This document shows positions 15,001 through 18,000 of a stretch of 64,000 nt of DNA, piece after piece. The position numbers are program-made. How positions within the stretch are numbered: position 1 is the first letter of the stretch; the number at the start of each line of letters is the position of its first letter. This DNA comes from Gemmatimonadota bacterium (GTDB lineage Bacteria; Gemmatimonadota; Gemmatimonadetes; Gemmatimonadales; Gemmatimonadaceae): contig JAZJZK010000007.1 of the NCBI GenBank assembly GCA_040389905.1, positions 319,492 through 383,491 on the forward strand, given 5' to 3'.

Positions 15001-18000
15001 CTCATGGTGGAGAAAGAGCTTCGTGAGCCGGGCGTCGTCACAATGCGGTGTGATGACCACGCGGGGCTTCAGAATGCCCTCGACGATGAACTGCCCGATA
15101 TCGTGGTGGTCGACGAGACGTCCTGCCCCACTCCCGTCGGACAACTCCAGGCCATTCGCGCTCAACTTCCGATCGCGCAGATCGTCCACCTCCGTGCAGG
15201 CGACGCTGCGCGTTGTAACACACTCATCGAGTGGGGTGCGGACGATGCGATCGATCGGTCCCCCGCGTGGCCAATTCGCATTCGCTCAGTGCTGCGTCGG
15301 GCGCGCGCCATCAAGTCCCTCGAGCAAACGGCGATTGGCGACGTCATCCTCGATCACCGGACGCGCCAGGTGTGGTGTAGCGGAGAGGAAACGCGTCTGA
15401 CCCGCCTCGAGTTCGAAGTGCTGCACCTGTTGTTCAAGAGCGCGCCGTGCGCCGTCCGCACGGAATGCATTGCGGCCGCGGTCTGGAAGGACCGGTCCGA
15501 ACGCCAGCAGCGAACCCTGGTCCAGACATATGTGTGCTACTTACGGCAGAAGCTCGCGAGCAGCGAGAGCGTCGCGCTGCGCTTCTGCAAGGTGCGCGGT
15601 TACTACTTCGGGCCTCGGCGGAAGGCGGACCGCTCGATCTCGATCGAACGTGCGGGCGTCCGGATGTACGCGAACGGCGACGCGGGGTAACGGTCGCTCG
15701 CTGCGGTAAAATCATTCGCGCGTGCGGTAGAATGATGACGCACTTTCCGGAGCGCGCGCGACTATTCATGGCATGCTCGCTGCCATTCGCTCAGCCGCCG
15801 TACTCGGCATCGATTCCTACGATGTTACCGTTGAGGTAGACGTCGCGCTCGGTCTCCCGCAATGGATCATCGTCGGCCTGCCGGCAAATGCCGTGAAGGA
15901 GAGTCGAGAGCGAGTGAGCGCCGCGCTCATCAACGCGGGATTCACCGTGCCGTCGCGGCGCATCACCGTGAACCTTGCGCCCGCTGACGTACGCAAGGAA
16001 GGAACGGCGTTCGACTTGCCGATTGCGCTCGGAGTGCTCGTCGGGACTGGCGTGATCGCACCGGAGCAAATCGAGCACTGCGTGTTCGTCGGCGAACTGG
16101 GTCTCGACGCCTCGATTCGACCGGTCCGCGGCGCGCTGTCGATCGCGCGTCAGCTCGCGTCGTATTCATCAGAACGGAGAACCACGCTTGTTCTCCCCGC
16201 GGCCAACGCAGGAGAAGCATCGCTCGTGGGTGGCTTGCGTCTCGCCGCTCCATCGACGCTCGGCGAGCTCGTCGACTGGGTCCATGCGGGTTCGCTTCCT
16301 GAGCCGAAGACGGACGCGCGCACCGTCAGCCGGGTGGATGATCTCGACCTTGCCGATGTCGCAGGGCAGGAGGGGGCGAAGCGCGCGCTGGCGATCGCGG
16401 CGGCAGGGTCGCACGGGATACTTCTGGTTGGGCCACCAGGTGCAGGCAAGACCATGCTGGCGCGCCGCCTCCCGACGATCCTGCCCGCGTTGACGGACGC
16501 GGAAGCGCTGGAGGTGACAGCGGTGCACTCGGTTGCCGGAATGCTCGATCCGGCCGCAGGTGCGGTGTGGCGGCGTCCCTTCCGCGCGCCACACCACTCG
16601 ATCTCGACGGCGGGGCTGGTGGGCGGTGGGTCGTCGCCGAGGCCCGGCGAGGTGAGTCTTGCGCATCATGGGGTGCTGTTTCTCGACGAGTTGCTCGAGT
16701 TCCCGCGCTCCGTGCTCGAAGCGTTGCGTCAGCCAATGGAGGATGGAACGGTGACGATTGCGCGTGCGTCGGCCTCGCTGCGTTTTCCGGCGCGATTCGC
16801 GCTGGCTGCTGCGATGAATCCGTGTCCATGCGGCCATGCGGGCGACGTCTCGCATCCGTGCGTGTGTCCGGCGGCTGATGTCGCGAAGTACCGCGGTCGT
16901 CTCTCGGGTCCTCTCGCTGACAGGATCGATCTCCATGTGAATGTGCCTGCGGTTGCTCTCACACGACTTTCTTCGCGCGAGAGCGGCGAGAGTTCGAGCG
17001 TCGTGCGTGTGCGCGTCGAGGAAGCGCGTCGACGTCAGCGCGGCCGCTACCTCAGCGATGATGGTTGCAACGCGCGTGCGCCGGGCCGGTGGCTCGAGAC
17101 ACATGGACAGGTGCGTGGGTCAGCTCGCGAGCTTCTCACGTCGGCGGGCGAACGGCTTCACCTGTCAGCGCGCGCATTCCATCGCGTGTTACGCGTTGCG
17201 CGAACCATCGCGGATCTCGATGGCGACGCGAAGGTCGGCGCACCCCACGTGGCAGAAGCGCTCGGCTATCGGCCGAGAGGGCCGGAGGTCGAACAATCCA
17301 TCAGGAGGGCCATTGCATGAACACGAAGGCGTTCAGGATCTTGCGGGTTGACGGTGATGCCGATAGTATTACTTATCAAAGTAATACCACGGAGCAGGCT
17401 ATGCGCATCACCAGCAAGGGGCAGGTCACCATTCCGCTTCAGGTTCGGGAGCGTCTGGGACTCCTGCCCAATACCGAAGTCGAGTTCAGCATTCGCGGCG
17501 ATGTCGCGGTGCTGATGAAGGCCGGGACGCGGCGTCGTGGACGAGCGGTCGTGGAGCACATGCGCGGACGCGGCGACGGTACGATGACGACCGATGAGAT
17601 CATGGCGCTTACGCGCGATGCGACGCCGAGTGCAACGAAATGAGCCAGGTTCTGGTGGACAGCAATGTCATCATTGACGTCCTGACCGAAGACGCGAACT
17701 GGTTCGAGTGGTCGGCGAAGGCGCTGGAGGAGGCCGCGGAATCGGACGTGCTCTTCATCAATCCGATCATCTACTCGGAAGTGTCGGTGCACTTCTCGCG
17801 CATCGAGGATCTCGATGCCGCCGTGCCGCCAGCGAACTTTCGACGCGAGGCGTTGCCATGGCAGGCGGGGTTTCTTGCAGGGAAGGCGTTCCACCAGTAC
17901 CGCAAACGAGGCGGCGAGCGGCGGTCTCCCTTGCCGGACTTTTACATCGGTGCACATGCCGCGATTCGTGGCGCGACGCTGCTCACGCGCGATGCGTCAC

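Follow-up and report, generated by a model that had tools for sequence, protein, structure and literature searches.

The comM gene of a Gemmatimonadota bacterium is preceded by a tandem repeat that raises the question of whether DNA-uptake and recombination genes are switched on together in this lineage, and by what kind of regulator. The window considered here is a stretch of 64,000 nt (G000:C7:319492-383491) from a genome of 5.08 Mb that is 63% GC and 85% complete. One of the proteins encoded in it has close homologs labelled Gemmatimonadaceae, and "the order" below refers to Gemmatimonadales. Upstream of comM we identified TGCGGTAAAATCAT followed, with a period of 21, by TGCGGTAGAATGATGACGC, and the comM ATG lies 31 nt past the GACGC that ends the second element (Table 1). 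This start codon coincides with the predicted transcription start, such that the comM transcript would be leaderless. Directly 3' of comM, the antitoxin frame of an AbrB-type antitoxin and VapC/PIN toxin pair is open from an ATG at 17317 that overlaps the comM stop, no terminator-like site was seen between comM and these genes, and the pair is possibly co-transcribed with comM. Divergent from comM and directly upstream of it is an OmpR-like response regulator gene (14893-15690 of the window).

Table 1. Features of the comM locus (positions in the window) and occurrences of a separate box elsewhere in the genome (positions on contigs).
Feature	Position	Strand	Basis
Distal half of the proposed tandem activator site, with TGCG as A box and TCAT as B box	15702..15715	+	Sequence; matrix columns -39..-26
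Proximal half-site TGCG-N4-AATGAT-GACGC, abutting the -35 region	15723..15741	+	21 nt after distal half-site; distance to the comM start kept in 20/21 other genus genomes
comM -10 box GACTAT (nAnnnT type)	15760..15765	+	A and T columns from unscored positions; sequence
comM, YifB family Mg-chelatase-like AAA ATPase, 515 aa	15773..17320	+	TIGR00368, 545.7 bits (cut-off 362.4)
AbrB-type antitoxin and VapC/PIN toxin genes directly 3' of comM	17401..18047	+	
TTCG-N7-TTCGG, candidate LexA box (G000)	C10:75523-75547, C66:16075, C34:35224, C52:48756, C7:318155, C27:104416		

A first matrix, seeded with nine named sites, converged on 40 intergenic sites with the consensus tGCR-N4-WWYGAT in the distal half and tGCR-N4-WWYGRTGACGC in the proximal half. 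The layout consists of two half-sites (GCR-N6-YGRT) 21 nt apart, with a -10 box of the form nAnnnT located 19 nt beyond; the period between half-sites is 21 in 29/40 sites and 20 in 10/40. The matrix columns (GC at -38 and -18, G at -28 and -8) describe a direct repeat with two boxes one turn apart, while the -10 box emerged from positions that had been left unscored in the matrix build (A at +20 in 33/40 sites and T at +24 in 37/40). The initial annotation had given spacers of N5/6 and N8, which do not sum to 21, and its motif is better written TGCR-N4-WWYGRT-N7-TGCR-N4-WWYGRTGACGC. Its TAnnnT-like box is present, although in the form nAnnnT, with T at -12 in just 18/40 sites.

With the -10 box included, the matrix identifies 45 sites of at least 22 bits in the 5.08 Mb, compared to none at the same threshold in the reversed genome and none in two 9-mer block shuffles. 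All nine sites named at the outset were recovered, as were those of ssb, recJ, and a second pilin, the recJ site being weak (21.4 bits) and having a poor -10 box. A matrix from 29 non-competence sites alone places the 12 competence/recombination sites at ranks 1-15 among approximately 10.15 million positions, with a leave-one-out minimum of 16.4 bits, a result that demonstrates a single motif and not an independent discovery, as the training sites were originally collected with a competence-seeded matrix.

An ATG or GTG start codon is found at +29 to +32 in 31/45 sites, compared to 12% of random positions. The previous description of an activator site on leaderless promoters is supported, with leaderless starts predicted at most of the sites. 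Leaderless starts are also frequent genome-wide, with a TAnnnT peak 12 nt before start codons. Ordinary promoters in this genome have a TTGAC-like box 17 nt from the -10 box (11/28 spacings), whereas the TGAC of the motif is 20 nt from it, suggesting that the motif is an activator site at the -35 region instead of a -35 box. Further features of AraC/XylS class II sites were found: the proximal site lies at the -35 region at a fixed distance from the -10 box, with no canonical -35 at 17 nt, and the tandem direct repeats of approximately 21 nt each contain two boxes one turn apart. These alternating A and B boxes within a 21-nt repeat correspond to AraC/XylS geometry.

Competence or recombination genes follow 11/45 sites, namely comM, comEA, comEC, yraN, radC, ssb, recQ, obgE-dprA, a PilB-NUDIX fusion, and two pilin genes or clusters. 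The fusion protein combines a PilB/GspE-type ATPase with a C-terminal NUDIX domain (L021:332-2332). A larger group of sites (27/45) precedes small nuclease, cassette, toxin-antitoxin, protease, or defence genes, including 8/10 of the Uma2 nuclease genes in the genome, 5/5 four-helix-bundle genes, 3/3 GxxExxY genes (found by local profile), and 4/5 clan AA protease genes, together with one GIY-YIG gene, three toxin-antitoxin pairs, one HTH_37 gene, and two defence loci (an Eco57I-type methylase with a helicase, and a PLD-SNF2 helicase). Three of the remaining sites lie before uncharacterised ORFs and four are without a same-strand gene behind them. Among the top-scoring members of unknown function are a 181-aa truncated ABC-type ATPase (L002:328-870) with matches in 2/5 relatives and a 100-aa protein (L006:373-672) with a weak MGMT-like lead (score 0.86). 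Two strong sites with -10 boxes (C30:62932 and C7:96901, both on the minus strand) are oriented antisense to the coding genes they point into, which encode a CheB-like protein and a response regulator.

Within the genus, the best site upstream of comM lies 29-31 nt before the start in 20/21 other genomes with upstream DNA (19/20 with the unpublished G012 set aside). Across the order, we scanned with a core-only model that ignores the GACGC tail, counting a gene when an in-frame start comes 29-33 nt after its best-scoring site. Across the three families of the order, whose genomes are kin and give counts that are not independent, this was found for comEA in 20/24, yraN in 25/29, and comM in 23/32 cases, compared to 0/18 for comM outside the order and 18/300 random first genes, bearing out the conservation at comM and yraN that had been reported among relatives. 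For yraN, a site and in-frame start also occur in 5/5 additional genomes, and for radC a site is present in 12/23 cases in the order versus 0/7 outside it.

Conservation of these sites would extend the regulon indirectly. The initial annotation noted that recA and pilB/C lack the motif, which holds for the stretch directly upstream of them only: comEA lies directly upstream of pilB in 17/19 relatives, and recA follows yraN on the same strand in 35/35. The pilus motor operon and recA are therefore probably covered by way of comEA and yraN. In the present genome 19 kb separate comEA from pilB, a four-helix gene under a site of its own is located 661 nt before pilB, and pilM and pilB each have their own TTGACA-like sequence, making read-through from the motif promoter uncertain. 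The membership of comEC and obgE-dprA proposed for this genome stands here and is not conserved. For comEC, which previously could not be tested in relatives, a site was found in only 6/29 relatives. A ComFB-like gene (presumably so, from its Cys motif) lies directly upstream of comEC in 15 of these loci, and no site precedes it in any of the 15. Of 26 relatives with upstream DNA, just G013 and G104 show a clear obgE-dprA site, placing it at the genus level, and none of 27 loci has a convincing site directly before dprA. The support from ssb comes from this genome alone.

We consider, with a probability of roughly 0.68, that a natural-competence programme is turned on throughout the order from sigma70-type promoters at which the motif serves as a class II activator site. 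Two activator monomers would sit on it head-to-tail, one A box (GCR) and one B box (YGRT) being read by each, with a helical turn between the boxes, and the second monomer, at the -35 region, would recruit RNA polymerase to a weak promoter that has a -10 box only. Transcription would begin approximately 31 nt past GACGC, usually at the start codon. The core targets would be comEA(-pilB-pilT-pilC), comM, yraN(-recA), and radC, with comEC, obgE-dprA, pilins, ssb, and recQ as lineage-specific additions.

It is gene content that points to competence as the physiological state. The conserved core (comEA-pilB, comM, yraN-recA, and radC) favours it, as does the company these genes keep elsewhere. ComM and YraN are a transformation helicase/nuclease pair (PMC13663708). 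In the CRP-S regulon, radC, ssb, dprA, and comM are all members (PMC1635313), alongside a single toxin-antitoxin pair (PMC6957337). Against this reading, 27/45 sites are not at uptake genes. The label "competence regulon" given earlier describes just 11/45 sites in this genome.

The initial annotation had reported that the regulator was not found, and we can now propose a candidate with the range of the motif. There are 13 AraC domains in the genome, and we profiled the range of three of these proteins (on C12, C24, and C14). A 276-aa protein combining a receiver-like and an AraC domain (C12:209387-210214), nearly always single-copy, is present in 60/63 genomes of the order (59/62 with the unpublished G085 set aside) and 0/27 outside it, in a comparison that covered three of the 13 AraC proteins and that could miss diverged orthologs beyond the order. 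The gene was also found in 5/5 additional genomes. Close matches of the C24 and C14 paralogs occur within the family only, a range too narrow for either to be the sole regulator. The C12 candidate is encoded before atpA in a gene run whose other conserved members are a sigma70 paralog, an ABC ATPase, and, in most cases, a NUDIX gene; the sigma70 paralog gene is present in 19/20 candidate regions.

The predicted structure of the candidate (pLDDT 93) has a receiver fold followed by an AraC double HTH. In our reading of the alignment, Asp70 is nearly invariant, with no conserved acidic pair after strand 1 and no Lys after strand 5. The N-terminal domain would be classed as an atypical receiver, the modelled fold being that of a receiver while phosphorylation-site residues besides Asp70 are not evident. 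Both the first recognition helix, RE(H/Y)LSR, and the GCR box are constant. Variation in the second helix is accompanied by variation in the tail of the B box (TG in 36/46 sites versus 2/26), a suggestive covariation that we set aside because it largely reflects a single split between clades and did not hold in two held-out genomes, G028 and G030, which have the G-type helix yet TG boxes. Autoregulation was discarded, as only in G000 and G104 is the sigma-ABC-NUDIX-AraC operon preceded by a motif-like site. Range and geometry thus nominate the C12 protein as the activator at about even odds, given that any order-specific gene would share its range. As separate observations, a receiver-like+AraC gene occurs as tandem repeats with a partner gene of approximately 415 aa at C1:32995-38822, and a motif-driven four-helix gene at C12:208975-209415 (L158-L161), seen in this genus and in a second one, is convergent with the AraC candidate at the 3' end of the latter, where its transcript could act as antisense feedback.

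The same regulon may have another activator, such as the pilin-linked AraC paralog at C24:21925, another AraC protein, or a winged-helix protein reading the 10-nt TG periodicity. This reading concerns the regulator only and overlaps with our own, and we regard it as a serious contender, though not the favoured one. A pilin cluster lies divergent to the C24 paralog, close orthologs of which occur in 15/22 family genomes, and the C12 assignment is drawn from range and geometry. In the 40 sister-family genomes that keep the motif, however, the C24 paralog has only weak matches (E >= 5e-22), and alternating A-B-A-B boxes suit two-HTH AraC proteins better than identical repeats do.

With regard to the signal, the main rival to competence is a LexA-independent DNA-damage or general stress regulon in which the uptake genes are passengers. 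Membership of recQ, ssb, radC, recJ (weakly), the two defence helicase/methylase loci, and many nucleases and toxin-antitoxin pairs would fit such a programme, as would the small protein with the MGMT-like lead and the lack of conservation at comEC and dprA. Other damage genes are differently equipped: a box of the form TTCG-N7-TTCGG precedes lexA (twice), recA, uvrB, gyrB, a radical-SAM gene, and an XRE gene pair, where uvrB, gyrB, and the radical-SAM gene were named by eye from sequence. This is a candidate for the LexA box of the lineage, and its presence at the lexA and recA promoters, in place of our motif, led us to reject the motif as a LexA/SOS box. A second lexA paralog (C7:440030) is not among the TTCG-N7-TTCGG matches. 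Moreover, as far as the genes could be named, 0/48 sites of at least 20 bits lie before a uvr, recN, ruv, or error-prone polymerase gene, and no match to a WYL-domain activator (PF13280, of the PafBC/DriD type) was found in the 85%-complete genome. Together with a conserved core of comEA, comM, yraN, and radC, these findings make a damage regulon improbable, while a competence regulon might still have damage as its inducer.

It is very unlikely that the motif is instead the promoter of a dedicated sigma factor, for instance the sigma70 paralog encoded upstream of the AraC gene. Competence sigma factors are known, the 298-aa sigma gene is syntenic with the AraC gene in 19/20 genomes, and the genome has 38 sigma region-2 matches. 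The distal half-site at about -70 to -57, however, is out of the reach of a sigma factor, the -10 box of the motif is sigma70-like, and all three short sigma70 paralogs keep the RER(V/I)RQ helix of region 4.2. These paralogs (approximately 298 aa, without region 1.1) are located at C12:212421-213315, C7:356638, and C15:94505, and the one on C12, which keeps synteny with the AraC candidate, shows 94-99% identity among members of the family. A possible role for it is that of partner holoenzyme. Chance or a compositional artefact, for which one might cite the iteration of the matrix and the low scores in distant relatives, is ruled out by the empty control scans, the cross-training, the -10 columns that emerged unscored, and the distance conserved across families.

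The sites at cassette genes extend the class II activator reading beyond DNA uptake, as most sites in the genome appear to belong to small inserted genes that bring their own promoter. In five relatives, 17/19 four-helix genes have a site and an in-frame start (5 fragmentary matches of 24 were left out), and one of the misses shows a site by eye. Among GxxExxY genes in relatives, 13/28 score at least 12, compared to 2/150 control windows, while Uma2 genes have a site in only about 4/11. In G104, a stretch of 828 bp containing a four-helix gene, its promoter, and short tandem repeats stands against 27 bp between the same two genes here. Inverted arms of 20-90 nt bracket 5/6 cassettes examined, in some cases with the promoter inside the arms, and the flanks differ between most copies. 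From this indel, the arms, and the differing flanks, it appears that each gene enters or leaves a genome together with its promoter. One site without a gene behind it (C5:288976) is followed by ATCCG nonamer repeats like those flanking GxxExxY genes and is possibly a cassette scar.

At all eight motif-bearing Uma2 genes, the predicted start site falls on an out-of-frame ATG or GTG that precedes the Uma2 start by 38-70 nt and that may damp the nuclease instead of turning it on. The frames of 46-55 aa that open from these leaderless ATGs were rejected as functional peptides because their stop is dictated by the Uma2 coding sequence. The Uma2 leaders (L004, L005, L009, L010, L017, L022, L024, and L030; in relatives, L273-L281) also contain a recurring CCGAG element after the out-of-frame ATG and a doubled start of the form ATG-NNN-ATG; these may be a second promoter or a damper of translation. 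At clan AA protease genes (L026, L027, L035, and L037), a Shine-Dalgarno-like stretch is present and an ATG is inside or beside the -10 box, with a second in-frame start at the predicted transcription start in 3/4, suggesting two ways in.

Combining these threads, we tentatively suggest that the atypical receiver-AraC protein is the master competence activator of the order, and that the four-helix-bundle, GxxExxY, and Uma2 mini-cassettes carry its promoter, are expressed during DNA uptake and recombination, and spread via transformation, with the out-of-frame Uma2 ATG perhaps damping the nuclease; as a whole, this combination is rather doubtful. In the open-access literature, supplements aside, we found nothing on the motif or these cassettes, on how competence is controlled in this phylum, or on a competence activator of the AraC type. 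Competence control is known for few lineages, and a site with a target list and a named activator candidate makes it testable here, where overproduction of one gene might render these hard-to-manipulate bacteria transformable. Moreover, several large orphan families (four-helix bundle, GxxExxY, Uma2, and clan AA protease) would be expressed under one common condition, and this suggests a way in which mini-cassettes bounded by repeats could move.

The regulon would work like known competence regulons, and is neither a CRP-S nor a LexA regulon. In the ComK, ComX/SigX, and SigH regulons, one regulator turns on late uptake and recombination genes. These regulators belong to a different class, and the motif shows no cin-box or K-box pattern, although no search aimed at these was made. 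ORF-bearing 23S rRNA intervening sequences share PF05635/TIGR02436 and TIGR04256 genes with the cassettes described here and are likewise bracketed by inverted repeats, whereas our cassettes are inserted between protein-coding genes and carry one promoter copy apiece.

Closer parallels come from target set and site architecture. The CRP-S/Sxy(TfoX) system is similar in its targets (uptake genes with comM, radC, ssb, and dprA, and a toxin-antitoxin pair) and in a core that begins with TGCG (PMC1635313, PMC6957337). It nevertheless acts through a symmetrical 22-bp site for a CRP dimer with Sxy, and its one toxin-antitoxin pair contrasts with 27 cassette and defence genes here. As our matrix is a direct repeat of period 21, and not the symmetrical TGCGA-N6-TCGCA (PMC1635313), the motif was rejected as a CRP-S site. 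The PIP box of HrpX/HrpB, given for HrpX as TTCGB-N15-TTCGB-N30-32-YANNNT (PMC13436205), resembles the motif in having an AraC-type activator, a tandem repeat (period 20), a fixed distance to a relaxed -10 box (YANNNT), and a genome-wide regulon, though it differs in sequence and controls type III secretion in plant pathogens. XylS binds two direct repeats of TGCA-N6-GGNTA, the second overlapping the -35 (PMC4225500). As in our motif, Pm has two direct repeats, in each of which a TGC(A) box is followed roughly a turn later by another box, and the second repeat is at the -35 region. The sequences compare as TGCA-N6-GGNTA and TGCR-N6-YGRT, with the GGNTA-like box one base further out here and often GGTWA in the sister family. 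Whereas XylS senses benzoates and serves one catabolic operon, our candidate has a receiver-like N-terminal domain and would serve approximately 45 targets with leaderless starts.
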